Origin: an uncultured Pseudobdellovibrionaceae bacterium | GTDB lineage: Bacteria; Bdellovibrionota; FAC87; UBA2466 | Reading direction: 5' to 3' | Length of the DNA: 64,000 bases | NCBI GenBank assembly: GCA_964611895.1 | Contig: CAZTDN010000019.1 | Span: 577 to 64,576 of the forward strand | Shown: piece by piece, positions 47,754 through 64,000 of the stretch | Position numbering within the stretch: the first letter of the stretch is position 1 | Layout: each line of letters opens with the position of its first letter | Notes under the pieces: model-generated | Seen by the model: only the letters and a program-made list of their open reading frames with translations | What the model was told of the DNA's origin: nothing | Database searches by the model: none | Program-made: the position numbers and the translations under genes

Positions 47754-48656
47754 ATGCCTCGCTACCTTGTGACCGGCGCCGCGGGTTTTATCGGCTCCAA
47801 TCTCGCCCTCCACCTCGAAGCTCTGGGGCATGAAGTGGTGGCTCTGGACTCTTTGAAAACCGGTAGCTCGGATAACTTGCGGGGGTTTCGCGGGCGGTTT
47901 CTTCGGGCAGATCTTACGCAGATTTCGATGGTCGAAGGGCAGTGGGACGGTGTTTTTCACCAGGGCGATATTACCGATCCCCGTCATCCCGATGATGCTC
48001 AAGTGCTCCGGTGCAATCGGTTAGGTTTTGAAGCCGTGCTGAATACCGCGAAGCAGAGTGGCTGCCGCTTGGTTTACGCCTCTACGGCAGGACTTTATGG
48101 CAATGGCCCAGTGCCGATGCGTGAAGATCAGCCGCAGCAGTTGATCACTGCCTATGGCCGTTCCAAATCCGAGATGGATGTGTTGGGACAGCAAAGTGCC
48201 ACCGCACATACGCCGGTGGTGGGATTGCGGTATTTCAATGTGTATGGCCCGAGGGAGGCGGCCAAGGGACGAGCCGCATCCATGGTATGGCATTTGTTTC
48301 GTCAGATGCAAAGCGGTGAAGCTCCTCGATTGTTCGAGTGGGGGGAACAGGTACGAGATTTTGTTTATGTCAAAGATGTAGTGACCGCAAACATGTGCGC
48401 GTTGCGAGCTCCTAGCGGAGTTTACAATGTCGGCACAGGTTTGGGATCGACGTTCAACCAGCTAGTAGAGGCGTTGAATTTGGCACTGAAAACAGACTTT
48501 CAGGCCCAGTACTTTCCCATGCCCTACGACCCGCATTCCTACCAAGGAAATACCGTCGCAGACACTCGCAAGGCGGAGTCGGTGCTCGGGTTTAAGGCGA
48601 GCTGGGATTTGGTCCGTGGCGTGGGGGACTACGTGGAGTGGCTGAAGCAGCAATGA
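47754..48656 (+). CDS. hldD: ADP-L-glycero-D-manno-heptose 6-epimerase
   Basis: Rossmann GAAGFIGSN. Long identity-like stretch to HldD: YASTAGLYG..., GLRYFNVYGPRE..KG.AS, GE.PRLFE...RDFVYVKDV. 300 aa from internal ATG 47754. Confidence 0.85.
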   Translation: MPRYLVTGAAGFIGSNLALHLEALGHEVVALDSLKTGSSDNLRGFRGRFLRADLTQISMVEGQWDGVFHQGDITDPRHPDDAQVLRCNRLGFEAVLNTAKQSGCRLVYASTAGLYGNGPVPMREDQPQQLITAYGRSKSEMDVLGQQSATAHTPVVGLRYFNVYGPREAAKGRAASMVWHLFRQMQSGEAPRLFEWGEQVRDFVYVKDVVTANMCALRAPSGVYNVGTGLGSTFNQLVEALNLALKTDFQAQYFPMPYDPHSYQGNTVADTRKAESVLGFKASWDLVRGVGDYVEWLKQQ

Positions 48657-49177
48657 AAAAGCTATTGGCGATGGCGGTAGTTTGCCTTGGGGCATTTGCC
48701 TGGGCGTTTCCTTCTATTCACGGGGAGGATCTTGTTTCTGGAAAAAACGTCGATTGGAAGTCGGGCGAAAAGGTCTCGGTGCTGGTGTTTCTGTCAGATC
48801 ACTGCCCTTGTTCGATTGCGCATCAGCCGGCGCTCGAAAAATTGGCTAAAGAATATGGTGAATTTTCGTTTCTTGGGATCGTATCGAATGCGCACGATTT
48901 GCGTGCGGCGCGATCGCATTTTAGCAAAACCAAACTGCCTTTTCCGGTGATTGCGGAGCCGGGGCATGATTGGGCAGATGCTCTGGGGGCGTTGAACACT
49001 CCCCACGTGTTTGTGGTTCGGGGAGACGCGGTTTTGTACCGCGGGTCTATCGACAATTCTCGAGACGCCGTCACGGCGGATCAGCACTTTTTATCAGCAG
49101 CTTTGGAAGACTTGCGTCAGGGGCGCGCCATTCGAGTGAATGAGTCGCGGCCTTTGGGCTGTGCCATCAGAAGGTGA
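48653..49177 (+). CDS. secreted thioredoxin-fold protein (redoxin/AhpC-TSA-like) with CPC motif
   Basis: Signal peptide MKKLLAMAVVCLGAFAWA. VLVFLSDHCPCS at the position of the redoxin active site. ATG overlaps the hldD stop. Confidence 0.45.
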   Translation: MKKLLAMAVVCLGAFAWAFPSIHGEDLVSGKNVDWKSGEKVSVLVFLSDHCPCSIAHQPALEKLAKEYGEFSFLGIVSNAHDLRAARSHFSKTKLPFPVIAEPGHDWADALGALNTPHVFVVRGDAVLYRGSIDNSRDAVTADQHFLSAALEDLRQGRAIRVNESRPLGCAIRR

Positions 49178-49632
49178 GGTCGATCATGAAGGGGTGTCTT
49201 AAAGCGAAGGGTTTTGTTCTTTTTGCGATTGCTTGTGGATTGGCGTCCTGTGGGAGGGAACCCGTAGAGGTGTTCGATTCCGTCGATAGAGTGGCTGCCA
49301 GTTGCGATTTGGAGTTCCCCAAAGCCGGGCTTTGTGCCGAAGTGAAATGGACCAAACCACCCACTGCTGACGAGCCCAATGGTTTTACGGTGCGTTTTTG
49401 GGAAAAAGCTAAAGGTTCACCCACAGGGCCTTTTGTGGAGCCAGCAAGCGCGCCGAGTTCTTTTCTCATCATGACTTGCTGCAAGACGCCCACGCGTTGC
49501 CCTCTGAAAAAGTCTCGTGCAGGGGAGTACGAAGCTTCGGGAATTACACTCGCGTCGGGGAAGAAATATTGGCAGTACGTCGTGGTGGGCTCCGAAAAAG
49601 TGAAGCTCGCTGGGGAAGTGAGCGTGAAGTGA
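49174..49632 (+). CDS. hypothetical lipoprotein
   Basis: Lipobox LASCG after a hydrophobic leader. No known domain. Confidence 0.45.
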   Translation: MRSIMKGCLKAKGFVLFAIACGLASCGREPVEVFDSVDRVAASCDLEFPKAGLCAEVKWTKPPTADEPNGFTVRFWEKAKGSPTGPFVEPASAPSSFLIMTCCKTPTRCPLKKSRAGEYEASGITLASGKKYWQYVVVGSEKVKLAGEVSVK

Positions 49633-50543
49633 AGCCGCGGGGGTTTGTTGTCGCTCTGCTACTGGGGGCTGCGGCGCGGTTTACTTGGGCCGCTGCTTGT
49701 TGTGGGGGGAACAACCTGGTCCCTTCTTTGATTTCTGGAGATCAGCGCACTCAAGTCACGGCGACCACCGCCTATTCCCGCGTTTTGGGTGAGGTCCCCA
49801 TCGAGGGAGCCACGCAGTGGCGTGACGAGGCAGACGTGGAGTCGCGGTCGTCCATGCGCCTGGATGCGGCGACACTTCTCTCGGATCGGTGGCAGGTGGG
49901 ATTGAGCCTGCCGGTAGTGCGGCGTTTTCGTGAACGCAATGGCGTGCAGGCACAAGCGATGGGAGTCGGCGATGTGGCGGTCCACCTTGGCTATGAAGTG
50001 TTGCCCCAGTGGACTTATTCGCCGTGGAAACCGAAGGGATGGCTGTTTGCTAGTTTGACGGCACCCACCGGCGTGGCTCCGGAAAATTCAACCGCCCTGT
50101 ATCAGATTGACTCCCTGGGACGCGGGTACTGGAATGTTGCTCTGGGCGGGATGCTTTTGAAAACCTGGGCCGACTGGGACGTTTTGTTTCTGGCGCAGGT
50201 GAATCAATCCTTTGCCAAGATCCTTACCAGCGATGCAGGCGACTTTATCCTTCGCCCTGGACTGGGCGGTTCTGCGGCTCTGGGCATTGGATGGAGCCGG
50301 GATGCTTTGCGCATTGGAGTGAACGGGAGTGTATTGTATGAAGGTGCTGTCGCTACCCAAGGTTTGGTAGATGAAGTGGGAACACGCCAGATTTCATTTC
50401 CGCTGAGTTTGCAGGTTTCCTATTTGATCTCTGACGCGTGGTCGTTGGGCGCTTTGTATTCGGACAACGGCTGGTTTGGTCCACAAAACGTGACTCTGAA
50501 TCAGTCGATTAGTTTGGTGGTGCAGACGCGTTGGGATCGGTAG
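49629..50543 (+). CDS. hypothetical secreted/outer-membrane protein
   Basis: GTG start overlapping the upstream stop. Signal peptide VKPRGFVVALLLGAAARFTWAAA. Alternating amphipathic beta-like C-half. Confidence 0.4.
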   Translation: MKPRGFVVALLLGAAARFTWAAACCGGNNLVPSLISGDQRTQVTATTAYSRVLGEVPIEGATQWRDEADVESRSSMRLDAATLLSDRWQVGLSLPVVRRFRERNGVQAQAMGVGDVAVHLGYEVLPQWTYSPWKPKGWLFASLTAPTGVAPENSTALYQIDSLGRGYWNVALGGMLLKTWADWDVLFLAQVNQSFAKILTSDAGDFILRPGLGGSAALGIGWSRDALRIGVNGSVLYEGAVATQGLVDEVGTRQISFPLSLQVSYLISDAWSLGALYSDNGWFGPQNVTLNQSISLVVQTRWDR

Positions 50544-51363
50544 GGGGCTGAGGCAGCGCGGAACGTTTAGGCGGTTTGGTCAGGCCTTTGAGACCCGTCA
50601 TCAGGAAAAAGTACTCTATGGAATCCCTAGCAATCCAGGTGGCTCCCATCCGATTCAAATGGGTTTGATTTGCTTCGGGGTGCAGCCGGTAATAGGTAAT
50701 GAGCGCGCCATCAGAACGGCGCACTATCGCTAGTTCACCGGTGTGGGGATTGAGTTTGTAATCCAAGACGGTTTCCGCCCCGGCATTGGCTCCGTCTTTT
50801 GCGGGCCGAGTCACCACGATGCACGCGGGGTCACTGTTCGAGGAAAACGCGACAGCTGCTTTTTCATAAGCCGCCAGAGCCTCTTCTAGAAGCGCGCTTT
50901 TTTCGGCGATGGTTTTGGCGTTGGCCATGGCTTTGCGGAACGGGATTTCGATTTCTGGGTAGTCGCCCCCCGACCCGGGGAGGTGGGCGAGTAGTTCTGC
51001 GGTGTACTTTTTTGTACCTTTACGGTGCTCGATTTGGGCCACTCCCAACACGTGCTTGATAAAGTGTTGAATCCGAGTGAGTTCTGAAAAACCATCGGTG
51101 GGGATCTGCTTAGAGCGGGGCATTCCGGGGACGGACCCGTTGCCCATTGGAATCGGTCTGCTGAGATTTTCCAGTATGTCGCTCCAGGTGACTTGTTTGC
51201 CGGATTCTAAGTCTGCTGCAACGACGCGATCTAGGGGGACCGTGACCAGGGTGCGAGGGTTGGTCTTGGGGTTAAGCCAGCCAAACAAGCAATGGCTCCA
51301 GTCAAACATCGCGTGGGCTGGCGAGTAGATCAGAAATACGGCTAAAAACAGGGGCTTGCGCAT
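50509..51363 (-). CDS. hypothetical secreted protein
   Basis: Signal peptide MRKPLFLAVFLIYSPAHA from internal ATG 51363. Helical Ala/Glu-rich middle. No motif recognised. Confidence 0.4.
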   Translation of the reverse strand: MRKPLFLAVFLIYSPAHAMFDWSHCLFGWLNPKTNPRTLVTVPLDRVVAADLESGKQVTWSDILENLSRPIPMGNGSVPGMPRSKQIPTDGFSELTRIQHFIKHVLGVAQIEHRKGTKKYTAELLAHLPGSGGDYPEIEIPFRKAMANAKTIAEKSALLEEALAAYEKAAVAFSSNSDPACIVVTRPAKDGANAGAETVLDYKLNPHTGELAIVRRSDGALITYYRLHPEANQTHLNRMGATWIARDSIEYFFLMTGLKGLTKPPKRSALPQPPTDPNASAPPN

Positions 51364-51475
51364 ACGCTTTAGGCTCTCCGGCGGGGATTTGTCCATTATA
51401 GCGCAAATCACGGGGTTTCATTGATCCAGGCTTCGAAACCTGCTAAAAGTCCCTTCTTTTAGAGGGGTTATCAGA

Positions 51476-52828
51476 GTGAAATTGCGGCTGCTTGTTTTGT
51501 TTCAAATTGTCTGTGTCGCTTGGAACAGTTTTGCCGAGAAACCGATTGTCGATGGGCCAGCGACACGGGTGCATTTCCTGCTGGTGGCGGACATCGAGGC
51601 GACCAACATTGGAAAGAGCACCGTACGCGACGTCGAAAGATTTGAGTCCCTGATCCGAGGCTACTTTGAAGATGAAAACCATCCCGAGCGGCGCAGCCAG
51701 TTCACTCTGACCAAAATGGGGTTCAGCGGCACCGTTTCCCCCCAGGATGTGATTGCTTATTACAAAGCGGTACAAATGGTTTCTAGCGTGAACGAAGCCA
51801 TTGTTTTTTATTACTCGGGCCATGGCGATTCGAATGCGCGGGGTGGGCAAAACTTTACCATGAGTGGAGGGGTATTGCCTCGGCCCGACTTTCGATTGGC
51901 TCTGGAAGGTTTGGGGGTGAAATCGCTCATCATTTTATCGGATGCGTGTAGCCCCGAATCGCGAGAGACGTTGGCCCGAACCCAGCCAAAGTCGTTTACC
52001 GGAGACTATTTAAATCGAAAAGCACCGGCGATGGCCTTGAGTGAAGAACAGCAGTTTATTTTTCATGATCTCTTTGTGCGGGGACAGGGGACGGTAGATA
52101 TAAACTCTTCGAGTTATGGGGAATATTCCTGGTCGAGCGAAAATTTGGGTGGCCTGTTTACCAGGAGATTATTTGATCTGATTTTGAATAGTGAGCTGGA
52201 GAAGTTGGATTCGAATAGCGATGAGTTTCTTTCTTGGGAGGAGTTTTTCCCGAGGCTGAAAAGAGACGTGTCGGATTATTTTCAAACGATGAAAGAGTCT
52301 GCGCCGGATGATGCGCCGATCAAGGAGTCTAAAGCTCAGACTCCCTATGCATTTACCTATCCAAGCTACCGCGATTTAGCTGGTTCGGTAGCAGGCAGTC
52401 CTCTGCAACCGGGGGTCTTGCAGCTGGTTAGCTATTCGCAGGCCTATGACTACCGTGTTTCGGGGTTTACGGGGCATTTGGTCATGTTTCAGCTTGTGAC
52501 GAGTCAGCCGGTTGCCAAGATAGAAGCTTTGGATGTGGCGATCCGATTCCGTCAGCAGGACGGCACTTTTTTGCCTAGTACAGCCGTGTCGCCCGCTTTC
52601 AAAGCTGTAGATGGAACGGTGGCGGCTTACGCTACCATTGTGATACTGGGCAAAAACTTCAACCGGGGCACGTTTTTCGTTCCCAACCTGGCAATTTTTC
52701 CCAATCCATTGCCGAACGGGACCCAAGTCACGCTCACCCCCGTTCTGCAGATTTTCACTCGGGGGCCACTGCGCCTGATCGCGCAGCACGATTTGCGAGA
52801 CATCGTCTTTGTTCAAAATGATCCGTAG
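51476..52828 (+). CDS. secreted caspase-like (peptidase C14) protein with EF-hand-like Ca-binding loop and C-terminal beta-rich domain
   Basis: Signal peptide. Caspase His-Cys dyad in correct order and spacing (IVFYYSGHGDS...LIILSDACSPE). DSNSDEFLSWEE matches EF-hand loop positions 1, 3, 5, 12. Confidence 0.6.
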   Translation: MKLRLLVLFQIVCVAWNSFAEKPIVDGPATRVHFLLVADIEATNIGKSTVRDVERFESLIRGYFEDENHPERRSQFTLTKMGFSGTVSPQDVIAYYKAVQMVSSVNEAIVFYYSGHGDSNARGGQNFTMSGGVLPRPDFRLALEGLGVKSLIILSDACSPESRETLARTQPKSFTGDYLNRKAPAMALSEEQQFIFHDLFVRGQGTVDINSSSYGEYSWSSENLGGLFTRRLFDLILNSELEKLDSNSDEFLSWEEFFPRLKRDVSDYFQTMKESAPDDAPIKESKAQTPYAFTYPSYRDLAGSVAGSPLQPGVLQLVSYSQAYDYRVSGFTGHLVMFQLVTSQPVAKIEALDVAIRFRQQDGTFLPSTAVSPAFKAVDGTVAAYATIVILGKNFNRGTFFVPNLAIFPNPLPNGTQVTLTPVLQIFTRGPLRLIAQHDLRDIVFVQNDP

Positions 52829-52877
52829 ACGTGGCAAAGCGGCCTGTGGTAACCGTCTGACTTGATTCCGTTTATGG

Positions 52878-52953
52878 GCGGGCGTAGCTCAGTTGGTAGA
52901 GCATCAGCTTCCCAAGCTGAGGGCCGAGGGTTCGAACCCCTTCGCCCGCTCCA
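52878..52953 (+). tRNA. tRNA-Gly (anticodon CCC), 76 nt with encoded CCA
   Basis: Hand-folded cloverleaf. Acceptor GCGGGCG/CGCCCGC, D-arm GCTC-AGTTGGTA-GAGC, anticodon stem TCAGC/GCTGA with loop TTCCCAA, T-arm GAGGG-TTCGAAC-CCCTT, discriminator T, CCA. Confidence 0.9.
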
Positions 52954-53019
52954 AAGTCATTTGCCGTTCTTTAGAAACATGCTAATACCCCCCCCTCGCG
53001 AACTCACTGAGGGAAAGCC

Positions 53020-54279
53020 ATGCGAAATCTGTTCTTTGGTCTCATAACGACGGTGGTTTTGAGTAGCTGCAATACACGGCTAATTTTGCAGGGGGCCGGG
53101 GCGCCATCCTCAGGAGAGAGGTTGCCCGGCAAATACGCCCCCGCTACGCCCGATACAGAAGAAAATACAGATCCACTCAAGCTTGTTTCGATTTATATGT
53201 CGGGATGGTCGGCTTGCGGTCTAACTCCGGAAAAGCGGACCTACTGCTGGGGAGCGCGTCCTCCAGGGTGGCGAGACGCGGGCTACGATCTACCTCCTTA
53301 TGTCCTCGCAAGTGAGTGGCGATTTGAGTCCTTGGCCAGTACCGGCGATGCTGCTTGCGGCCTAGACATGAACGGCAAGGCCTTTTGCTGGGGAGAAAAC
53401 GAATTCGGAGCACTGGGAATTGGTAAGATAGGCAGAGAGTATAGCTCTCTCTCCCCCAAAGAAGTCAGTGGAGGGCTGCTTTTTTCGACGATAAAGGGAA
53501 GCGGCAGTCACTTTTGTGGGCTCACTCTAAATGACCAAACAGCCTACTGTTGGGGTGCTAACACTGACGGCCGCCTCGGTGTAGGCGATGAACTACCTCG
53601 TGGAACCCCCACCGCCGTCGCAGGAGGAATGCGTTTCAAAACCCTCGATGCTGGTACTTTTACTTGTGGAATAGCTTTTGATGATCGGCTTTATTGTTGG
53701 GGAAATACGGCCTACATTACTGTTCGATTTGGTTCGTTGGCTTCTGAGTATATAAGCAACGTTCCAATGTTGTTTGAAATGCCAGAGAGGCTAGTCTCTA
53801 TATCCGTGGGAAGTGCTAGCGCGTGTGGATTGACCGAGGAAGGTAAAGCCTATTGCTGGGGATATGGGGTGCACGGTCAACTCGGGTCAGGTATTAATGA
53901 CGTGACCAAGATTCCTCAGCCTGTAAGCGGGGGTTTGCGTTTCTCAGACATTCAACTCGGCAGCTATGCAAGCTGGGGCCTCACTTTGGACGGAAAAGTT
54001 TATCTCTGGGGAATGAATATACTCGGCGACCTCAACCCGGCCATGAGTGCGAATGAAATTACGAATGTACCTATTGAGGTTCCGACCGCGCTGCGGTTCT
54101 CTCGTATTTCGGGAGATGCAGCTGGAGTGTGCGGCCTTGAGAAGGACACCGGTTTGCTCTATTGCTGGGGCAATAGCTATGACTCAAAGCTATTTGTTAA
54201 GCAAGCAGCGGCACCTGGCAGTCAAGTAGGAACGCACGTTCCGACGCTGGTTCGCATTCGAAAAGAACTTTTGAATTAA
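53020..54279 (+). CDS. RCC1-repeat (beta-propeller) lipoprotein
   Basis: Lipobox VLSSCN. Six or more repeats of the CGLTxxGxxYCWGxNxxGxLG pattern (e.g. CGLTPEKRTYCWGA; CGLDMNGKAFCWGENEFGALGIG; CGLTLNDQTAYCWGANTDGRLGVGD; CGLTEEGKAYCWGYGVHGQLGSG). Confidence 0.7.
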   Translation: MRNLFFGLITTVVLSSCNTRLILQGAGAPSSGERLPGKYAPATPDTEENTDPLKLVSIYMSGWSACGLTPEKRTYCWGARPPGWRDAGYDLPPYVLASEWRFESLASTGDAACGLDMNGKAFCWGENEFGALGIGKIGREYSSLSPKEVSGGLLFSTIKGSGSHFCGLTLNDQTAYCWGANTDGRLGVGDELPRGTPTAVAGGMRFKTLDAGTFTCGIAFDDRLYCWGNTAYITVRFGSLASEYISNVPMLFEMPERLVSISVGSASACGLTEEGKAYCWGYGVHGQLGSGINDVTKIPQPVSGGLRFSDIQLGSYASWGLTLDGKVYLWGMNILGDLNPAMSANEITNVPIEVPTALRFSRISGDAAGVCGLEKDTGLLYCWGNSYDSKLFVKQAAAPGSQVGTHVPTLVRIRKELLN

Positions 54280-54295
54280 AGCCGCTCGCGATACC

Positions 54296-54775
54296 TCAAG
54301 CCGCTTTTTGAACGAGATCGATGACTTTGCCCTTGAGCGAAGCTTTCGCTTTTACAAATGCGTTAGCGATGTAGTCCAACTCCTCCTTGGTAAAGGCTTT
54401 TTTCATTTTGGGAAACATTTCCATCTCTTCTTCTTTTACATGATGCTCGACGATCTCTCTCAAGGTGGTAATTCGTGCGATAAACTCATGGGCCTCTGTG
54501 GGGGTTGCGTCGAGCTTGCTCAGTAAAAACTTGATCAATGAGTGTTCCTCCGTACCTTCGTAGCCAATTTCCAGAGTGCGTTCGGTGACCCTGAGGGAAG
54601 GGTAGAGTGCTTTTTCTTCTGCTTCGGCATGATGCGTGAGTTCGGTGCGGAGCGCATTGTAAAGGCGCTCTCGAGTCTGAGTAGACTTTTCAGTAGTTCT
54701 TTCTATCCGGGTGAAGAGCTCACCTACTTTTCTATGATCTGTTTTAATCAAATTGAAAATATTTTCATTCTTCAT
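54296..54775 (-). CDS. hemerythrin-like (HHE cation-binding) domain protein
   Basis: DHRKVGELF...HHAEAEEKALYP...EHH..EE..MFP pattern of His/Glu ligands of hemerythrin-like domains. 159 aa. Confidence 0.7.
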   Translation of the reverse strand: MKNENIFNLIKTDHRKVGELFTRIERTTEKSTQTRERLYNALRTELTHHAEAEEKALYPSLRVTERTLEIGYEGTEEHSLIKFLLSKLDATPTEAHEFIARITTLREIVEHHVKEEEMEMFPKMKKAFTKEELDYIANAFVKAKASLKGKVIDLVQKAA

Positions 54776-55025
54776 GGGGTTCTCCTTTTACCTACGAAAA
54801 AGTAGTACGAGCAAAACGACAACTAAGATCAAACTTGCGCTGGGGTAGTAACCGTATTGCCAGGCTGAGGAATAGGGCCACACGGGTAACAGGCCGATCA
54901 CTAATAGAACTAACAAAACCAGAAGTATTGTATGCACCCTGTCCCTCCTTTGTTATTCACCTCATAAGCAACTCGCGTGCCGACCACTCCTAGGCTTGAA
55001 GGCCTAGAATCTGTTGCGCATTGAA

Positions 55026-55715
55026 TCAGTGAGCTGCGTGAGGATAAGAGAAGCTGTGCGCATTTGGGCCCAGATCTAACAGGGTTTCCACTTCAAAGCG
55101 GAGTGTGGTTTGCTTTGGAAACTGGAACTCGGATCGGCGTAACCCGCGCTCGATCAGCAGCGTTTGGACGTTACGGTAGGGATGGTTCAACCAGGCAAGC
55201 CTCTTTTCCAGGCTCTGCGGCAAAAAAGTTTCAAAGTCAGCTTGAGGTTGAGTGGGCATTTCCGTTGCAGCGAATTGGAGCTCGTTTCGCACCGTACTGA
55301 ACGGGTACTCCTCTACTCGAGAGGATAAACCCGCCTCCACGGGATTGCGGAACACGTACTTATATGCGTGCGAGTAATAGATACCGTACGTGATCAGCGA
55401 CCAGTGGTACCTGGCTCCGAAAATCCGATTGATTCGTCCGGAAACGCGACCGATTTCCTTGCTTACTTCCCTGAGAAAGTAGTTCATGCACTCTCCCAAA
55501 TCCGCCTCGGGAGTCGATGCGATTAAGTGAAAGTGATTCGACATCAAGACAAAGGAGTGGATGTTCCAGCCGTAGCGATTGCGTACGATTTCGAGTATTT
55601 CTTTGAAGATTCTCCAAACGACATCGGTTGGTAAATAGAATGGCTCGCGGTTATTGCAGCGGGCAGTGACATGATAGGGAAACTGTTTTGTTCGATACAA
55701 GGGTTTTCTTGGCAT
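55026..55715 (-). CDS. REP-associated tyrosine transposase (RAYT) / IS200-like Y1 transposase family protein
   Basis: HuH motif SNHFHLIAS and catalytic-Tyr region YKYVFRNPVEAGL (Y..Y..NPV characteristic of RAYTs/COG1943). Flanked by REP-like palindromes. Confidence 0.75.
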   Translation of the reverse strand: MPRKPLYRTKQFPYHVTARCNNREPFYLPTDVVWRIFKEILEIVRNRYGWNIHSFVLMSNHFHLIASTPEADLGECMNYFLREVSKEIGRVSGRINRIFGARYHWSLITYGIYYSHAYKYVFRNPVEAGLSSRVEEYPFSTVRNELQFAATEMPTQPQADFETFLPQSLEKRLAWLNHPYRNVQTLLIERGLRRSEFQFPKQTTLRFEVETLLDLGPNAHSFSYPHAAH

Positions 55716-55752
55716 ATGCGGTCTTTAGCAGAAGCCATGCCAACTCGAGGTA

Positions 55753-55796
55753 GGTACGCGGTACCTTTTCAACAAAAGGTACCGCGTACCGGATTA
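55753..55796. repeat. REP-like perfect hairpin (17-bp arms GGTACGCGGTACCTTTT / AAAAGGTACCGCGTACC, 4-nt loop) followed by CGGAT
   Basis: Read directly: ggtacgcggtacctttt caac aaaaggtaccgcgtacc at 55753-55790, 38 nt upstream of the RAYT start codon. Confidence 0.65.
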
Positions 55797-56216
55797 AAAG
55801 GATGCTCGGCAGGCGTTGAATAGCCGATCGTCTACTAGGTACTGTGTTTTGTAATAGGCCGCCCAATACTGGTTTAGGTTGGCCAGGTAGTTTTTGTAGC
55901 TGGCGTCCTTACGCTGTTTCAGCGGGGCGATCTGGCAGTCGAGCTTTGCCCATCCGGTAGCAAAGTTTTGATAAATCGCATTGCTCGTAATCCAGAGCTC
56001 TAGGTATCGGCCTTGGTCGGCTGGCTGAAAAACATGGATGCCTTCACTAAATTGATAAACAGCCAGGTATTGAGTCGAGTCGCCATGCACTTGTAACGGA
56101 ATAGCGATGTGTGAACCGTCGACATAGTAGGTGAGTCCATTGAGGGTTGCCGGCGCCCACTGGGCCGAAGCAAGGGTGGTCAAGGCGGCAAAAGCCAAAG
56201 TGAAAAGTCTTTTCAT
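55794..56216 (-). CDS. small secreted protein bracketed by REP elements
   Basis: Signal peptide MKRLFTLAFAALTTLASA from internal ATG 56216. ~140 aa, Tyr/Trp-rich. No homology recognised. Confidence 0.45.
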   Translation of the reverse strand: MKRLFTLAFAALTTLASAQWAPATLNGLTYYVDGSHIAIPLQVHGDSTQYLAVYQFSEGIHVFQPADQGRYLELWITSNAIYQNFATGWAKLDCQIAPLKQRKDASYKNYLANLNQYWAAYYKTQYLVDDRLFNACRASF

Positions 56217-56372
56217 TTTCGTTTCTCCTGGTGAATAAATCGGTGGGTTGCCACCGCGGTACACCGGCACCTTGTGCAACGTCGATGCCAAGTCTCAAGG
56301 GCAGAAAGCGCAGCCAAAACCCCGGAGAATCCTTAGTTTTGTATCAAAGCTGAGATAGTCGTTCTCAAAAAA

Positions 56373-56445
56373 GGTACGCGCTACCTTTTCAAGAAAGGTA
56401 CGCGCTACCTTTTTCACGAAAGTAACCGCGTACCGGATAACGCGG
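56373..56445. repeat. REP-like cluster: two direct copies of AAAGGTACGCGCTACCTTTT plus an inverted partial copy GTAACCGCGTACCGGATAACGCGG
   Basis: 56373-56389 and 56397-56414 are near-identical units (each a small hairpin). 56422-56445 shares GCGTACCGGAT with the 55778-55796 copy. Confidence 0.55.
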
Positions 56446-56524
56446 AGCGGTCGAGTTAAGCGTCGGAAATGCCGATGTTTTAGAGCTGGGGTTCTCCCCC
56501 ACTTTAAAACGCTGAGGAGATTTC

Positions 56525-57940
56525 ATGCGCTTGCTTTGTGTAGTTTTTGGAGTGTTGTCGGCTTCGCTCGCTTTGGCCAAGAGTAACTGCCACTTTGAAC
56601 GGCTATTGCCCGCAGCACCTGTGGCGCCTCCAAAACCCGTCACTCCCCCTAAACCCAAACCCGCACCCATGCCCTCTCCCGCTCCAGCGCAACCCGATCC
56701 CGGACGGCGTCTGCCCGATCGGTTTCCCGATCGCCCGGTGAAGCCCACAACCGATCCCCAAAACATCAACCCGTTTGGTCTGTACAAAGACAAAAGCAAT
56801 GCACGTTTTTTGGGGCAAGTCCCAGAGCCCGTTAGAGAAAACTGGTCGCGGAGCTTCGAGGAAGAGCGCACCCGCTTGCAAGCAGAAGCAGCAAAGCTGG
56901 GCGTAACCGACCCTTCGCAGCTAATGCCCAAACTCTTTCAAAATAAATATAAACTCCTCGAAATCGAAGAAAAGCATCGGCCGGAAATCGAAAAACTGCT
57001 CCGCCGAATGGCGTCAGAAGTCTATGGGGAGGACGCCACGCAGTTCTTAGAAATCCGGATCAGCAATCAGCTCCCCGCATGGCCAGAAATTGAAAAAGCA
57101 CCCGCTTCTAGCCGCCTGGGGCAGTGGTTTGCGCAGCTCAAGAAGCGGTTTTCTCGAAAGGGCAGGCAGCAGATACTATCCCAAAAACAAGACATCGAGT
57201 TTCTGAAATACCGTCGAGAGCTGTACAACATGCTCTCCCAAGCGCACGGCTACTACGGTGTGAAACGTTTTTACTCAATGTACGAAAAAGAACTGCGCGC
57301 GCTCGATCCCGAACTCCCCGAACTGCTTCGCAACGACCTTACCCTTGCCATGTATGGTAATAGCCTCATGATCCAGGGCATGCCACAGGGGCATGTCCCG
57401 CGGTTTAAGAACCGGCAAGCGATGGAAGGCATGGTGCATGGCCGCAATATCACCGAGGTGGCGGCCGAGAGAAAACAAGACGAAGACGGCTCAACCTATC
57501 TCCAAATGGGCCATCGCCGTGGAACGGCGGTAGGGCACAACTCCCACGATGCAGCCCACGAAACGGCAAAGGCCGGGTTCAAGCTCGCCACCGCCTCAGA
57601 AGCTGTTGTGCGCTCCACATTGACCGCTACAGAGCGAAAAGTTCTCGATGAGGCGACCAATACCCCTCTTGCCGAAATTCGTCAGGGAGTCTTTGGGCCT
57701 TATCTCGACGTCACCTTGAGAAAATCCATTCGTGCGTTGGTGCATCCGAATAACAGCGCGCAGCAGCTCACGGATGCGCAATACCTCACTGTAATCGACC
57801 GCGTTTTTAGTGAGTTGCCGCCAGCTCAGTTTAATTTGTTTATTGAAAAAGCAGCGGATCCGGGTTTTGCCGCAAGTCCGGAAGCCGTGGCGGAATTGCG
57901 CAATACACTCGGAGATTTTGATCTGTTTCCAAAGCCATGA
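56525..57940 (+). CDS. secreted Pro-rich protein of unknown function, translationally coupled to the giant ORF
   Basis: Signal peptide MRLLCVVFGVLSASLALA, then PPKPVTPPKPKPAPMPSPAPAQPDP linker and a ~380-aa helical domain. Stop TGA overlaps ATG 57937 (ATGA). Confidence 0.55.
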   Translation: MRLLCVVFGVLSASLALAKSNCHFERLLPAAPVAPPKPVTPPKPKPAPMPSPAPAQPDPGRRLPDRFPDRPVKPTTDPQNINPFGLYKDKSNARFLGQVPEPVRENWSRSFEEERTRLQAEAAKLGVTDPSQLMPKLFQNKYKLLEIEEKHRPEIEKLLRRMASEVYGEDATQFLEIRISNQLPAWPEIEKAPASSRLGQWFAQLKKRFSRKGRQQILSQKQDIEFLKYRRELYNMLSQAHGYYGVKRFYSMYEKELRALDPELPELLRNDLTLAMYGNSLMIQGMPQGHVPRFKNRQAMEGMVHGRNITEVAAERKQDEDGSTYLQMGHRRGTAVGHNSHDAAHETAKAGFKLATASEAVVRSTLTATERKVLDEATNTPLAEIRQGVFGPYLDVTLRKSIRALVHPNNSAQQLTDAQYLTVIDRVFSELPPAQFNLFIEKAADPGFAASPEAVAELRNTLGDFDLFPKP

Positions 57941-60900
57941 TTCGACTGATTTACATTTTGCTCCTCATTGCCTGTGGGACACTTGTGGTGTCTTCGCGCG
58001 CAGAGAACGAAGCTAGGCCCCCCGAAGGGGACCGCGATCCCGTGATCCGATTTCCTCAGTGGATGGAAGATGGCGAGGTGTTATTGCCCGAGGAAGAAAC
58101 CGATGCCTGGAAGCCTAAAAAGTATTTCCGTCGGTCTCCTCTGCTGGGAACGTCCGCCACGGAGGAGCTCTACAACATCGATCGCATCATCCAAAGAGAC
58201 TTTGAGGCACAGGACCTAGAGAAACACTGGATAGAGAACTATACAAAAGTGGCCGACGTCGCTAAACCGCCGGTGCGGGTAAACATGGCCAACGTCGGCG
58301 GGACAGTGTTTTTAGAAAACATATTGGCGTCTGAAAACCAAAAGGCTCGCCGATTTGACTCTATTCGATTCGCGGAAAGGCACCTTGAGGACATTTTGAA
58401 TGCTCTCACCAAGCCTGGCGATCCGCCTATTTCAGTCATTTTTGGAAACGGTTTCCGATCTCGAAAAATAGAAACCAAGGTTGATCTGCTCCGTGGTGGC
58501 GTGATCGAAATCGAGCCTGGGGCATTGGTCGACACCAAGAATTTGAGTGAACTCGCCGCGCTTTTTGCAACGGAAATCGCAAAAATCAAACCTGAGTTTG
58601 AGGCAAAGCACGTGGATATGTTGCGCGATTTGGATGTACCGAAGGATGTGCTTGCTAGCGAGTATATTCGAAAGCGAATTGAAGGCATGGGCAAGGGCGG
58701 GAGTGAAGAGATCCTGAACGAGAAACGCAAGCTGCTCGATGCGTATCGTCTGGCCTTGCAACAAGAACACTACGCCTTGCGCAAGGAAAACACCGACGTC
58801 AAAAGGCTAATGTCCGAAACAGGATTCAAAATAGATGTCGATGGAGTAACGGAACTGCGCGTGCGCCAGGCAGTAGACGCAGTCGATCGTCTCACCGGAA
58901 GTCCAGATGGAACGGGGAGTGAAGGGGGATTCGATCCCTGGGGAATCGTTGGCCCCAAACGCAGTCGTTCAGAAATAGAACTGCTCGGAGCCAATCCAAA
59001 GGGCCGTATCCGCAGTGCTCTTGAGCTGATCTTTGGGCGCGCTTCCGCCCAGAACACTCCTCAAAAAAGAAGCACGCAGGCGATGGAACTCGAGTTTGTG
59101 GAAAAGTACGTGCTCTGGCTAGAGAACCGAGAGCAGGGCAACTTTGCTCGCCTCAAACACCGCGGACAACCCCTCGATCCCAGTCACGACGCCATCCGTG
59201 CAAACGCGCGCTTTGCTCAAAAATTTTACTTCGGTCCGGAGATGCAGGACATCGCCTTAATCGGGGGGATTGGGGTTATTGCCTTGGGTGGCTACATCAA
59301 GGGCGTTGATGTCTTGAGTAGTATTGGCACGGGCGTATCAACCACGTGGGATACGGGAAAAATGGGTGCGTGGAATCTGTGGAGCTATATTTCCAGTTTT
59401 TTTACTTCGTCCAACCCAGGTCCAGCCCCGGTCGAACAACCTCGAGGTCCCGGTTTTCTGGATCGAATAGGGCAGTGGATCTCCAATGTCGGCGAATGGT
59501 TTGGGGGACTGTGGCCCAAGGGCGAGCCCAGTACTTCGAAGTGGGCTTGGAAAGATTATCTTCCCCCCATGCCGGAGTGGGTTGGCGAAATGGCCACATG
59601 GACAGGCAAAACCGCGTACTACCCCTTGGGCGTGATCGAGAGCCAAGTCCTATCGCCACTGGCGGAGTTTGCGACTCGACAGGGATGGCCCGGTGTGGCA
59701 GCGGTGGGGGCAGTGGCAGCTGCGTACGCTCTAGAGCGGTTGGTGGCAGCGCCCATCCAAACGCGTTCTGCCCGTTTTTTTCATCGTTACCGTATAAACC
59801 TGCAGGAGCAAGCGCACCTATTTAACCGACTGCGAAAAGTCGTCAATGCGGGGCCGCCTTCGGTAGAGGACATCGCCGATCTCGCCAAACATCAAAACCT
59901 CGCGACGGAATTCATCGAAGCCGGAAACGGGGATAAGTACGAGTTCCTGCGCAATCGCCTCGTGTATATGGTGCTTTTTGGAAAAAACGCCGCTTGGCAC
60001 CAGTATGCCAGCAAAAAGCGAGAGTATGTTTCAAATTTATACAACCAGCTTATCGAGGCAGTCGAAACGGAACTCAAAAACCAAACCGGAAAAGATCGCG
60101 TTCCCGCCCGCAAAGTCAAAAAACTCGCCCGCCAGATACTGGCGGAGGACTATATCGACCGCGGTTCCAATACCCCGGTGTCAGGGGCACAGCAGCTCCA
60201 GGGTATAGAGGGCCATGCTCAGAAGACCCAAAAACTCTTGTACTTTATGTTTGGAGCATTGGCTCAGAGAGCCGCGGAGACCAATACGACGCTCTTGCTC
60301 CGGCTCATCGACACCAAACTCTCAGAGCCGGGGCTCACCTCCGCTGATAAGAGTGCGTTGCGTGAGCAGTTATTGGCGTTGAGTTCTCTGCCACATTTGC
60401 GCAAACAAGTGCAATCTAAGTACATCGCTATTTGGCGCAAGCATTTTCCTCAAGACGTGTTGGGCACCGTGCATTCCGCCCGGCAGCTCCTCGAGCTGCA
60501 TAATGGCAAGGCTGTCCCCGAATTTGTGTTGCGATTACGGGCGCGGGAGCTTGCTACCGAAAAACTCCCCCCAGCGGAACTGGCCGAAGTGTTGCGCGCC
60601 TTGGTCGCCATGCGGATGCATACCGATGCCGCACGATTCTTGTACAAGCACCTTCCCGAAGTCGCTGCTTATAGCCACGACGCTCAAGTCCCACCAGAGC
60701 TCAGGGCAGCGACGCGCAAGAGCATTGCCACTCTTTTGGCTCAATGGCGGTCGAATTACGAAGAAAAACTTTTTCCGATCAAAGAGGCTGGAAAACGGAA
60801 TTTCTTCAAGATCGCTCTGCTTTTGCGAGCAGCCTATCTCTCGGATCCCAAAACTCGCTTTGCCTTCGGAACCCACCTGCGTGAAGCGGTAGACACGGCG

Positions 60901-63900
60901 ACTCTTTCTGCGTCGGACCTCGCTTTGAAGTGGTACTCCAAGCGCATCAACCGCACGGAGCTCGATCCGAGCAAAGATGCCGTGGAACAAATCGAGACCC
61001 TGCACCGAGAACACGATGTGGAAAGCCGTTTCCTTGCCGAGCTGTTTCTTTCGAACTTGGAAAAAAATCCAGAGATCTTACCCAACAAAACAGCAGTGTT
61101 TCGAGTCCTGGGCAGCGAACAGCCTTGGCATAATCTCAAATCCGTGGCGCAACAAAGTGGGGCTCCGTGGGAAGCAAAGCTCTTCCAGCGGTATTCCGAT
61201 CTCTCCAAAAAGTACCCGTCCTATAACTACAACCCCGGCCATTCCGAAAAAGTGCAGCGTCTTTTGCTCCGGCGTTTTGAGCAACTCGCTCCCACCGCAG
61301 AGTTGAGCGAAAGGCTTTTGTTGTGGCGCATGATGGCCGGTCGAGGGCCGACCGGAGTGACCGATGCTTACATGGAGAAGCTCGTATCGGAAATGACTCC
61401 GGCTGAGGCGAGTGGGATCTCGCTCAAGGCTCTGGAGAATGGGTGGATTTGGGATCCTCAGATTCGTTCGACGCTCTACAAAAAGTACGCGGAGCCGCGC
61501 CTGGGTCCACAAACTTTGGTAGAGGTCGATCGCGAGCAGTGGAAAAAAACTGCACAACAGCTCCAATCTCACAAGGCAGAACTGCCGTCGATAGAATCCG
61601 CCGAAGCAAAGCAGGAAAAGCTCGGAGAGATTTTGGCTACTTTCGATTCCATGGAGTTTGATGTTCCCAGCGAAAAATCCCGTTTTCGTGCGGAGGTGGA
61701 GGCACAGCTTCTCAAGCCAGATGAGGTCGATTTCGGCAAGGTGATTGAGCCCTTCAAAAAAGGCGGGCACTTTATGGATGCGCGCAACGCAGTTATCCAA
61801 GCCGAGCTGGAAAAGATTTCGGGATACTTTCCGGAGTCGGGCTACGCGGCGGCACACTTGTTTGATTGGGTGAGCCACCGTCTCCAAACGCGGGAGAGCG
61901 AAGCGCGCGGGGTTAAAGATCGTTTTGTCTCTCGAAACACTGAGGAAAAAGATCTCGGGTTTTCGGTGGTGAACGAAATCATCGAAGAAGCCAGTGGTTG
62001 GGATCCAGTAGACAAATGGAAACTGATTCGTTGGTTGCGAGGCGCTGCTGGGCCACCTGAAATCATCGTGAAGAAAATGCGCCGCATGGGGCCCGAGACG
62101 GTGCGGCGTCTGTACAGCACTTTGCCCACGCTCGTGCGCAGCACGTTTATCAGCACCTTGCTCGGAGCCCCCAAAACAGGGTTGCTAGAGAACAGTGGGA
62201 AAAATCTCTACTACGAACAGGTTCTCAACGAGATCATGCCCCGTGGAGAAAAAGCGGCCAATATCGCCAATGATCTGCTGGAGAGTTTTTTGGTCGCCAT
62301 GGAAAGAGTCTCCAATCCCGCAAAACGCCGCGCGGTTCTGTCGTACTTGCTCGCGCACCCAGTGGAGCAATCCGATACGGGAACCGTACTGAAAAACCTT
62401 CTCGAGTCCTATGGAGTTCCCGGGATTAAGCTCGGGCAAACCATGGCCGCGGGAGATTTTCTACCGGAGCATATCCGCAGCAAGCTTGCCGACCTGCACG
62501 ATCGGGCCAAGGAGCCTTATCGTCATGAAATTTTTGAACGATTGAAAGAGACTCTAAAAACCGAACATATCGAGCCACTATTTGTGGTGGAGGATCTGCG
62601 CGGATCGGCGTCGATGAAGTACACCGTCTCTGTCCTAGACGGAGAAGGGAAGCGTCATGCTATCCAGATCAAGCGCGAAGAGGCCGAAGCAGCGCTGCTG
62701 CGCAACTTCGAAGAGCTGCGCATTGTGGTGGACGAGCTTATCAAGAAGTCACCCCAGCTGTATTCCTTTCTCAAGGGCATGGTGCGGGCGACACGGGATG
62801 CGATCCGGCGTGAGTTGAGTCTGGTGCGAGAGGGACAGAAGGCGGATCTGGCCAAGGCTGAGTACTTAAAGCTTCCCCTCAAAGACAATGTCCTGGTCGA
62901 AGTTTCCCAAACCACTCCACTCATTGAAAAAGTTGCAAACGATCCGGCTGCTTTGTACCAGTTGCGAAGCTCGGAGTTTTCGGAAGGTCGAAGTATCAAT
63001 GCATTCCCGCCCTCGGTGCAAGCGCAGATGGCCGAGTTTGTCCTCACAGCCGAATCGGAAATTCTCTTCCCGCAGGACGGTCGATCCACGCACGCGGATC
63101 CCGATCGTCATCCGGGAAACATCCTCTGGGCCGTGGAAGACCAGGGAAAAGAGCTCTTGTACCGTTTTCAGCCCATCGACTGGGGGCAGCAGTTCCAGTT
63201 GACCGAAGCCGATCGAAACCGGGTGGTAGAACTCGTAGCGTTCTCGCAGATTTTTGAGAATGTCGGTGCGGAGCCCGCTCTTGTGGACCGGCTCATCGCG
63301 TTTGTGGGGATCGAGCCGAGCCAGCAGGCGGCCTTGCGCAAAGCGCTGAGCGGGTACTTTCCCAATACAAACGCAAAGCCTCGCTCGATGCTAGGCCCGT
63401 ATTACTTTCTCTTGTCGGCGCTAGAAGGGGCGGGGATGCGGTCGAATATGCTCAACTATGATCTGATCAACGGGATCTTTCGTCTGCAAGCCTACGAGAG
63501 CAAGACGCAGAATAAGAACTACCGATCTCCGAAGAAAGTGTTTACCGATCGGGTGATGAAACGGGTGAGTCAATTAGTCGACGCGACGGGCCCCAAAATG
63601 AGCCGCATTCGGTATGCATTGAACAATTCCAATCCGACCAAGTGGAAAGTCGCCCTACGCAATCAGGGCTTGCACGCCCAGGGCAAGCTCTCCGTAGATA
63701 AGTTTCTGGCCGAAATGGGAGTCTCCTCAGCCACGCGCGACCGCGCGTTGGCGGGCGTGAAACCGGAGCGGGTGGAAGCGTTGTCCACTGCCGAGGGCCT
63801 GACGCACTGGTTGGGCGAAGTGTCCACCAACCCCAAACTCCGCGCTTCTGATCGTGCGCTCATTGGGCGGTGGCTAGCGCACCCTCGGATGGAGTCGGTG

Positions 63901-64000
63901 CAACGCAATCTCCCTCTGCTCACAGCCGAAGATGTGCGTGCGGTCATGAACTCCTCTCAAGTGCTCTCTGAGATTAGCCAAGCCAAGGAAAAGACGCGTT
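57937..64000 (+). CDS. giant ORF (>2021 aa, 3'-truncated by window end): lipoprotein-like signal, ~1450-aa unknown helical region, then ABC1/UbiB-type atypical protein-kinase-like domain
   Basis: Codon-by-codon read from ATG 57937 in frame 1 finds no stop to base 64000. N-terminus MIRLIYILLLIACGTLVV. Kinase-like motifs GVPGIKLGQTMAAGDFLPEHIRSKLADLHDRAKEPY, KRHAIQIKREE, HADPDRHPGNILW near nt 62400-63350. No competing ORF >270 aa on either strand. Confidence 0.75.
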   Translation, partial: MIRLIYILLLIACGTLVVSSRAENEARPPEGDRDPVIRFPQWMEDGEVLLPEEETDAWKPKKYFRRSPLLGTSATEELYNIDRIIQRDFEAQDLEKHWIENYTKVADVAKPPVRVNMANVGGTVFLENILASENQKARRFDSIRFAERHLEDILNALTKPGDPPISVIFGNGFRSRKIETKVDLLRGGVIEIEPGALVDTKNLSELAALFATEIAKIKPEFEAKHVDMLRDLDVPKDVLASEYIRKRIEGMGKGGSEEILNEKRKLLDAYRLALQQEHYALRKENTDVKRLMSETGFKIDVDGVTELRVRQAVDAVDRLTGSPDGTGSEGGFDPWGIVGPKRSRSEIELLGANPKGRIRSALELIFGRASAQNTPQKRSTQAMELEFVEKYVLWLENREQGNFARLKHRGQPLDPSHDAIRANARFAQKFYFGPEMQDIALIGGIGVIALGGYIKGVDVLSSIGTGVSTTWDTGKMGAWNLWSYISSFFTSSNPGPAPVEQPRGPGFLDRIGQWISNVGEWFGGLWPKGEPSTSKWAWKDYLPPMPEWVGEMATWTGKTAYYPLGVIESQVLSPLAEFATRQGWPGVAAVGAVAAAYALERLVAAPIQTRSARFFHRYRINLQEQAHLFNRLRKVVNAGPPSVEDIADLAKHQNLATEFIEAGNGDKYEFLRNRLVYMVLFGKNAAWHQYASKKREYVSNLYNQLIEAVETELKNQTGKDRVPARKVKKLARQILAEDYIDRGSNTPVSGAQQLQGIEGHAQKTQKLLYFMFGALAQRAAETNTTLLLRLIDTKLSEPGLTSADKSALREQLLALSSLPHLRKQVQSKYIAIWRKHFPQDVLGTVHSARQLLELHNGKAVPEFVLRLRARELATEKLPPAELAEVLRALVAMRMHTDAARFLYKHLPEVAAYSHDAQVPPELRAATRKSIATLLAQWRSNYEEKLFPIKEAGKRNFFKIALLLRAAYLSDPKTRFAFGTHLREAVDTATLSASDLALKWYSKRINRTELDPSKDAVEQIETLHREHDVESRFLAELFLSNLEKNPEILPNKTAVFRVLGSEQPWHNLKSVAQQSGAPWEAKLFQRYSDLSKKYPSYNYNPGHSEKVQRLLLRRFEQLAPTAELSERLLLWRMMAGRGPTGVTDAYMEKLVSEMTPAEASGISLKALENGWIWDPQIRSTLYKKYAEPRLGPQTLVEVDREQWKKTAQQLQSHKAELPSIESAEAKQEKLGEILATFDSMEFDVPSEKSRFRAEVEAQLLKPDEVDFGKVIEPFKKGGHFMDARNAVIQAELEKISGYFPESGYAAAHLFDWVSHRLQTRESEARGVKDRFVSRNTEEKDLGFSVVNEIIEEASGWDPVDKWKLIRWLRGAAGPPEIIVKKMRRMGPETVRRLYSTLPTLVRSTFISTLLGAPKTGLLENSGKNLYYEQVLNEIMPRGEKAANIANDLLESFLVAMERVSNPAKRRAVLSYLLAHPVEQSDTGTVLKNLLESYGVPGIKLGQTMAAGDFLPEHIRSKLADLHDRAKEPYRHEIFERLKETLKTEHIEPLFVVEDLRGSASMKYTVSVLDGEGKRHAIQIKREEAEAALLRNFEELRIVVDELIKKSPQLYSFLKGMVRATRDAIRRELSLVREGQKADLAKAEYLKLPLKDNVLVEVSQTTPLIEKVANDPAALYQLRSSEFSEGRSINAFPPSVQAQMAEFVLTAESEILFPQDGRSTHADPDRHPGNILWAVEDQGKELLYRFQPIDWGQQFQLTEADRNRVVELVAFSQIFENVGAEPALVDRLIAFVGIEPSQQAALRKALSGYFPNTNAKPRSMLGPYYFLLSALEGAGMRSNMLNYDLINGIFRLQAYESKTQNKNYRSPKKVFTDRVMKRVSQLVDATGPKMSRIRYALNNSNPTKWKVALRNQGLHAQGKLSVDKFLAEMGVSSATRDRALAGVKPERVEALSTAEGLTHWLGEVSTNPKLRASDRALIGRWLAHPRMESVQRNLPLLTAEDVRAVMNSSQVLSEISQAKEKTR

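Follow-up and report, generated by a model that had tools for sequence, protein, structure and literature searches.

An unannotated family of exported proteins in the Bdellovibrionota, encoded almost always just before a large exported or membrane protein

What does it mean that a gene for an exported protein of modest size runs without a gap into the gene for a giant one? The question is raised by a 64,000-nucleotide stretch of DNA from an uncultured Pseudobdellovibrionaceae bacterium (contig CAZTDN010000019.1 of assembly GCA_964611895.1, positions 577 to 64,576; below, the window is this whole stretch). An open reading frame (ORF) at 56525-57940, here called the small gene, ends in a stop codon that overlaps the start codon of a giant ORF. 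A previous reading made from the letters alone (the sequence-only reading) had described the product of the small gene as a Pro-rich secreted protein and had taken the overlap to signal co-translation and a 1:1 functional partnership. To be established were the reality of the small gene, the generality of its coupling to the next gene and the probable role of its product. The small gene and its junction comprise the following features.

56514 to 56519, + strand: Shine-Dalgarno sequence GAGGAG, 5 nucleotides 5' of the small-gene ATG (sequence reading)
56525 to 57940, + strand: small gene, ATG start, 471 amino acids; belongs to an unannotated family found only in Bdellovibrionota
56525 to 56578, + strand: signal peptide, amino acids 1-18, predicted cleavage between ALA and KS (sequence reading and hydropathy)
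56588 to 56590, + strand: Cys22, the only Cys of the mature window protein
56609 to 56737, + strand: Pro-rich linker, amino acids 29-71 (sequence, alignment and structure model)
56726 to 57937, + strand: globular domain, amino acids 68-471, predicted helical with a long beta-hairpin at 306-337
57937 to 57940, + strand: ATGA stop/start overlap, with the ATG of the giant at 57937-57939 and the TGA of the small gene at 57938-57940

Position 56525 is the sole possible start of the small gene, with only three in-frame sense codons upstream. The N-terminus, MRLLCVVFGVLSASLALA followed after the cleavage point by KSNC, was recognized by eye as a Sec signal peptide with an AxA cleavage site, in agreement with hydropathy, and the same type of start was present in all full-length members of the family described below. 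An orthologue of 487 amino acids (P0002, from a Logan assembly, locus L002) was 55% identical over residues 72-470. When the two genes were aligned by codons, the mismatch frequencies at the three codon positions were 0.38, 0.25 and 0.64, and different codons were used at 136 of the 220 identical residues. This pattern of mismatches, together with the differing synonymous codons, indicated purifying selection on the protein. The small ORF is a real protein-coding gene with an export signal; that it might be a non-coding artefact or have its start elsewhere, a possibility that the sequence-only reading had itself raised, could be discarded, since no other start is available and the substitutions are of the coding type.

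The ATGA overlap was read in the sequence exactly as it had been described. No GGAGG-like Shine-Dalgarno site was found in the 15 nucleotides upstream of the ATG of the giant ORF. Coupling was then surveyed in the 14 lineages whose sequence continues past the small gene, and in 13 of these the next same-strand gene started at -23 to +12 nucleotides. One junction (P0015) was known only from called-gene coordinates, which give an 11-nucleotide spacer. The other 13 were read base by base and comprised eight exact 4-nucleotide overlaps (ATGA or GTGA), two longer overlaps, two spacers of 2-6 nucleotides and one spacer of 157 nucleotides. Every protein encoded downstream of the small gene started with a signal peptide. 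The pair of small and giant gene recurred in L002, where the small protein was 55% and the giant 45% identical to its counterpart in the window. Tight coupling to the following gene is a conserved property of the family, not a product of chance. Four-nucleotide overlaps are common in compact bacterial genomes, and L003 and L015 (described below) break the pattern, so that the arrangement might be ascribed to incidental gene packing devoid of functional meaning. This is very improbable: at identities as low as about 27%, and amid completely different surrounding genes, 13 of 14 lineages still have the arrangement.

The sequence-only reading had found no motif that it could place in the small protein, and database searches gave the same answer. 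No family scored above threshold in Pfam, NCBIfam, PHROGs or PADLOC for the protein or for 18 relatives, and no match was consistent among these; the top Pfam match was DUF6030 (E value 0.045, 13.7 bits versus a cut-off of 26.7). A profile of the family produced no match among PDB sequences (best E 0.43). Word-seeded searches of 5.8 billion proteins were insufficient to collect the relatives, returning only the window protein, P0002 and one further family member (2-3 members). An exhaustive phmmer/HMMER scan, which covered 1.84 billion cluster representatives, yielded 25 clusters with E below 1e-3, 19 of them below 1e-10, at about 27-36% identity. Scanning the GTDB species, each represented by one genome, with a pattern gave eight loci, all in metagenome-assembled genomes, labelled Oligoflexia, Bdellovibrionales, Pseudobdellovibrionaceae, Bacteriovoracaceae and, in one case, by the legacy name "Deltaproteobacteria". 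Oligoflexia and Bacteriovoracaceae, when looked up, were placed in the phylum Bdellovibrionota. The family was absent from the viral contigs scanned, and no member was found in two metagenome scans or in a single-sequence scan of genome contigs. Searching phage genomes by tblastn with three family members revealed no homologue, the sole match being at chance level (E 0.9). A literature search turned up no account of the assembly or of operons of this type. The small protein defines an unannotated exported family, found only in the Bdellovibrionota, relatives of predatory bacteria.

Alignment of the family revealed a common architecture: a signal peptide, a Cys, a Pro-rich linker of about 40-60 amino acids, a conserved motif, a variable helical region and then further motifs. 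In 12 of the 13 full-length members a Cys follows the hydrophobic core at a distance of 3-20 residues; in several it is the sole Cys of the mature protein. The Pro-rich spacer was found in all full-length relatives; in the window protein it includes PPKPVTPPKPKPAPMPSPAPAQPDP at amino acids 35-59. The motif after the linker reads P-[DE]-R-P-x-x-P-T-x-D-P-[KQ]-[DN]-x-x-P-x-x-L-Y, and those past the variable region are YRRELYNLLxQAxGWxGM, GREIV, GVAVGxNxWALAHEAxKAGFQ, TALEATQR and TNSNxAEIRQGI[YF]G. Invariant residues are, in window numbering, G306, H345, E346, K349, A350, E359, R363, R386, Q387, G391, F428 and F436. Conservation was mosaic: the mean share of the top residue per column was 0.51-0.68 in amino acids 68-89, 226-262 and 301-395 as compared with 0.32-0.39 in the other helices.

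Two assignments suggested by short sequence elements were rejected. Zincin metallopeptidases carry a conserved HExxH, whereas the window protein contains HDAAH (amino acids 341-345), and this element is not conserved; the relatives have WALAHE at that site, and only H345-E346 are invariant. Nor are the proteins lipoproteins of the usual kind, as the residues before the conserved Cys (KSN, EPP, VAE, DEQ and similar) do not form the lipobox [LVI][ASTVI][GAS]C. A related start was seen in other proteins of these loci. In L004-L015, as in the window (56579-56608), the small proteins, the M28 peptidases of the operons and the downstream partners of classes A and D (see below) share a signal peptide, a few polar residues and Cys-x-x-x-[LIV]. 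This start is not a lipobox, and it is missing in partner classes B, C and E, the last being the giant.

The structure prediction and Foldseek search proposed with the sequence-only reading were carried out. AlphaFold2, run with a 20-sequence alignment, gave a model of the small protein with a mean predicted local distance difference test score (pLDDT) of 84.5 and a predicted template-modelling (TM) score of 0.83. Confidence was low up to about amino acid 60 (pLDDT below 50 at 1-27 and 54-56, 55-69 between). The remaining domain was mostly helical, as the sequence-only reading had it. A beta-hairpin at 306-337 is followed immediately by the helix bearing H345-E346-K349. Against the PDB the best Foldseek match had E 0.53 and a TM score of at most 0.12. 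One true match was obtained in BFVD, namely A0A6J5Q1V8, an uncharacterized protein of an uncultured Caudovirales phage (E 3.4e-6, probability 1.0, TM 0.46/0.44 over 439 columns). It resembles the small protein in predicted fold and in size (499 versus 471 amino acids) but is only 14% identical to it. The fold of the small protein is thus confidently predicted and has no counterpart among solved structures, where the comparison covers solved and viral structures only.

The proteins encoded directly downstream fell into five classes.

Class A (L004, L005, L008, L009, L010 and L011): about 1050 amino acids, C-terminal FGE-sulfatase domain, E 1e-29 to 1e-33
Class B (L014): 733 amino acids, related to a 1121-amino-acid protein of L015
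Class C (L013): 977 amino acids
Class D (L012): 674 amino acids
Class E (window and L002): the giant ORF

The N-terminal region of class A is unannotated and carries an RGCYGGDCS motif. In five of these ORFs (L005, L008, L009, L010 and L011) an N-terminal region of about 800 amino acids with a conserved RGCYGGDCSILSVPYY motif was seen ahead of the FGE-sulfatase (SUMF1-like) C-terminus. The class B relative in L015 lies several genes downstream of the small gene and is not adjacent to it. That locus (L015 2396-14977, and L016) was found to be a long same-strand cluster of signal-peptide proteins of 528, 515, 454, 369 and 1121 amino acids that have no Pfam matches; an M28 peptidase gene stands on each flank, and the small-family gene is second in order. 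An M28 peptidase was a recurrent third member of the neighbourhoods: its gene stands upstream in L013 and L015, with a 4-nucleotide overlap, separates the small gene from its partner in L010 and lies downstream in L006. Neither an M28 peptidase nor a paralogue of the small gene was found in the 64-kb window. In a neighbour-joining tree of the small proteins, which is not robust, the window protein and that of L002 formed a clade of their own, and class A partners attached to two separate clades; this distribution suggests occasional replacement of the partner.

These data bear on the explanation that the small protein works by itself as an enzyme, periplasmic or secreted, whose substrate might be the cell wall, envelope material of prey or the N-termini of proteins, and that it shares operons with its neighbours through a common pathway and not through a complex. 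The invariant polar residues (G306-R307, H345-E346-K349, E359, R363, E384 and R386-Q387) surround a single hairpin-helix region and look like an active site. The partners are mutually unrelated, and the two enzyme types that recur nearby, M28 peptidases and FGE-sulfatase domains, are both of a protein-processing kind. On the other hand, the protein has no similarity to a known enzyme family or fold, its invariant residues could equally form a structural network of salt bridges, and the retention of exact 4-nucleotide overlaps in very divergent lineages is rather what one would expect of subunits produced at a constant ratio. Weighing both sides, we regard an independent enzyme as the main rival of the reading preferred below, unlikely though by no means far-fetched.

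The partner in the window is the giant, for which the following features were noted.

57937 to 64000, + strand: giant ORF, without a stop codon in the window (2021 codons up to its end); 2373 amino acids in full (P0003)
58006 to 59250, + strand: predicted periplasmic N-terminal domain, about amino acids 24-438, suggested by a signal peptide and one strong hydrophobic segment
59251 to 59307, + strand: predicted transmembrane helix, amino acids 439-457, Kyte-Doolittle score 1.82
62359 to 63234, + strand: putative divergent UbiB/ABC1 atypical-kinase-like domain, amino acids 1475-1766 (TIGR01982, Pfam ABC1 and motifs)

Hydropathy revealed an additional weak hydrophobic segment at amino acids 587-605. 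The kinase-like domain matched TIGR01982 with E 1.3e-9 (37.1 bits, below the cut-off of 487.6) and Pfam ABC1 (PF03109) with E 7.6e-5 (22.4 bits, below the cut-off of 22.9). The signature motifs KLGQ, AIQIK, HADPDRHPGNI and IDWG were read from the translation and are conserved in P0004, the homologue in L003. As judged from these motifs and sub-threshold matches, the domain is a divergent relative of the UbiB/ABC1 kinases lying below the curated thresholds. About 1000 amino acids of unannotated helical sequence stand ahead of it. No PDB sequence matched the giant. Among 5.8 billion proteins homologues were found in three lineages only (the window, L002 and L003), with pairwise identities of 45-48%. 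A model of the N-terminal domain, built from two sequences, was too poor to use (pLDDT 44), and its Foldseek matches were noise (best E 1.3).

A dedicated periplasmic chaperone or export pilot, assisting very large exported proteins in folding or in secretion across the outer membrane, for example for delivery to prey, would also explain why a conserved small gene precedes variable large proteins with signal peptides. The logic would be that of the adaptor-effector pairs of secretion systems, and Bdellovibrionota secrete many large hydrolases. We nevertheless hold this role to be improbable: the window partner is a predicted inner-membrane protein, mostly cytoplasmic, and not a secreted effector, no secretion-system genes were seen adjoining the pairs, and the protein, with its 45-50 kDa and its invariant polar site, is bigger than one would expect of a simple holdase. 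An immunity or inhibitor protein that shields the producer from its large partner would likewise be in keeping with the tight coupling and the common compartment. Such proteins are specific to one toxin domain and are encoded after the toxin, while here one conserved family precedes five unrelated partners; moreover, the window partner is a kinase-like membrane protein and no toxin, and PADLOC returned nothing. Immunity is hardly credible as an explanation.

The reading that we prefer, to which we assign slightly less than an even chance, is that the small protein is a periplasmic or envelope accessory subunit made together with the large protein encoded directly downstream. Given the ATGA overlap and a giant gene without a ribosome-binding site of its own, ribosomes ending the small gene would restart on the giant (termination-reinitiation), and both proteins would be made and enter the envelope together. 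The small protein would be exported by Sec, lose its signal peptide and act in the periplasm or envelope, most likely by binding or acting on the predicted periplasmic domain of the giant, of about 410 amino acids. A common activity or docking function may reside in the conserved blocks (68-89, 226-262 and 301-395, with the invariant polar set G-R, H-E..K, E...R and E.RQ), whereas the variable helices may be fitted to the lineage-specific partner. The single N-terminal Cys and the Pro-rich spacer have the appearance of a tether. Physical interaction with the partner, the tethering role of Cys and linker, and any catalytic activity are what we infer from this arrangement.

Several observations weigh against an accessory subunit. 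No similarity between the five partner classes was detectable by phmmer, blastp or hhalign (all probabilities below 1%), and hidden homology among them was rejected on these grounds. With mutually dissimilar partners no common binding surface is evident, and adjacency could mean only a shared pathway or co-regulation. In L015/L016 the small gene and the next gene are separated by the spacer of 157 nucleotides. The topology of the giant is predicted from hydropathy only: its signal peptide and one strong transmembrane segment suggest a single-pass membrane protein with about 410 amino acids in the periplasmic domain and about 1900 in the cytoplasm. A disulfide between Cys22 and the giant was excluded, since the giant contains two Cys only, C13 within the signal peptide and C2177, neither of them in the periplasmic part of the mature protein. 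Lastly, the gene before the giant homologue of L003 (P0004, 47% identical) is on the minus strand, and no small-family gene was found in the 910 nucleotides upstream of this homologue.

The giant thus also occurs without a small gene ahead of it. Of the expectations of the sequence-only reading, conservation of the tight coupling was borne out in 13 of 14 lineages and the pair recurred in L002, but the partner is not fixed, belonging to at least five unrelated classes, and a physical 1:1 partnership is at most suggested by these data. The same reading had named routine solitary occurrence of either gene as a refutation; solitary occurrence was seen once, for the giant, in one of its two other known homologues (L003). 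This homologue has a Pro-rich stretch of its own after the signal peptide (L003 770-960). At its stop codon a new ORF starts with an ATGA overlap (L003 8098-8199) and runs for 34 codons to the end of the contig. The 34-residue start, MSTLKTVARILVTAVLVFPQLASGIETNCPWMLE, consists of a signal peptide followed by NCPWMLE and resembles the start of small-family proteins. The gene order may thus be swapped in L003, the start being compatible with a small-family gene placed after the giant.

A more far-reaching reading can also be framed. The family might be a modular periplasmic adaptor of previously unseen fold whose N-terminal single-Cys tag and Pro-rich spacer connect large envelope proteins, themselves unrelated, with a site or machinery of the envelope common to all. 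The proteins so linked would be the FGE-domain proteins, the M28 peptidases and the giant transmembrane UbiB-like kinase, within a new assembly or display system specific to predatory Bdellovibrionota, and the signal-peptide-plus-Cxxx[LIV] start, borne also by the M28 peptidases and by partners of classes A and D, would be its docking tag. We would give this scheme only a small chance.

The region upstream of the small gene was compared with the sequence-only reading as well, which had placed the gene behind a cluster of repetitive extragenic palindromes (REP) and considered the pair a possibly acquired module.

56365 to 56438, no strand: REP-like palindrome cluster within the 233 intergenic nucleotides that precede the small gene; another copy at 55745-55794

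The cluster was confirmed. The motif GGTACGCG[GC]TACCTTT occurs in five copies in the window as against 0.02 expected, all of them at 55753-55790 and 56373-56434, and folding of segment 56360-56450 as single-stranded DNA gave -24.6 kcal/mol (z -4.75). An ORF for a Y1 transposase of the RAYT-like type (55026-55715, - strand; Pfam Y1_Tnp, E 4e-7) adjoins the REP-like clusters, and these bracket a small minus-strand ORF for a secreted protein (55794-56216/56291). As the sequence-only reading had noted, no obvious same-strand gene lies directly upstream: the + strand has none from 54279, where the nearest one ends, to 56525, and this interval contains three minus-strand ORFs. No sigma-70-like site was seen in 56446-56524, where a promoter is still possible as the sigma-70 search is uninformative for this phylum. 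From the REP cluster to the start codon, no known RNA element was recognized, Rfam giving only a chance-level match (E 0.67). The GC content was 0.53-0.54 in the gene pair and 0.47-0.55 in the 3 kb upstream, and this comparison showed no compositional sign of recent acquisition. A foreign origin of the pair, or its acquisition as an independent two-gene module, received no support, the GC content being in line with the flanks. The flanking genes differ in the window, L002 and L003, and the neighbours seen in L002 and L003 are missing from the window, which at 45-55% protein identity is to be expected and is uninformative on acquisition.

The upstream neighbours of the pair include genes for a 450-amino-acid protein with a caspase-like Peptidase_C14 domain (51476-52828, + strand; E 5e-5), an RCC1-repeat lipoprotein with an LSSC lipobox (53020-54279, + strand) and a hemerythrin-domain protein (54296-54775, - strand). 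A second contig, L001 (JACCDT010230141.1, 24,287 bp; source assembly GCA_013565695.1), duplicates window positions 46525-60725 with only three nucleotide differences, two of which are at the end of L001.

Most exported proteins of the Bdellovibrionota, predatory bacteria and their relatives, are uncharacterized. What is new here is a protein family and its fold, not a demonstrated mechanism. The family is defined by an unmatched predicted fold, an invariant polar site and a rule of gene order, the gene standing almost always just before that of a large exported or membrane protein. For experimenters this provides a few residues to mutate, a defined partner in each lineage and a 2373-amino-acid protein that joins a predicted periplasmic domain to a UbiB-type kinase-like domain. 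Should the small protein turn out to serve unrelated partners as a common adaptor, it would represent a new way of organising envelope proteins; should it be no more than an uncharacterized enzyme, the number of domains of unknown function would grow by one.

Comparison with known systems places the family near several of them and within none. Proteins of the TonB/TolA type also combine an N-terminal hydrophobic segment, a Pro-rich spacer of about 40-60 amino acids and a C-terminal globular domain in the periplasm. In the small protein, however, a hydrophobic core of about 13-16 residues is followed by ALA and then K, as in a cleavable signal peptide and not a membrane anchor; it has no TonB_C or TolA Pfam match, and no ExbBD or TolQR genes are nearby. 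The Eag/DUF1795 and DUF4123 adaptors of the type VI secretion system are likewise encoded by a conserved small gene directly upstream of variable, unrelated large proteins, but they are cytoplasmic and lack a signal peptide, and the present family has neither flanking secretion-system genes nor sequence similarity to them. In LuxP-LuxQ and TorT-TorS a soluble periplasmic protein is encoded beside a membrane protein with a cytoplasmic kinase-type domain and acts through the periplasmic part of that protein, as proposed for the window pair. Those soluble proteins have the periplasmic-binding-protein fold and act with histidine kinases, whereas here the fold is unmatched and the domain is of the UbiB/ABC1 type; furthermore, most members of the small family pair with non-kinases. 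The giant itself shares with the UbiB/COQ8/ABC1K kinases, a domain family whose biochemical role is still debated, the KxGQ motif, the Lys of AxK, a HADPxxHPGN-type loop and DxG, but at 2373 amino acids it is about four times the usual size and carries in addition a signal peptide and a predicted periplasmic domain.

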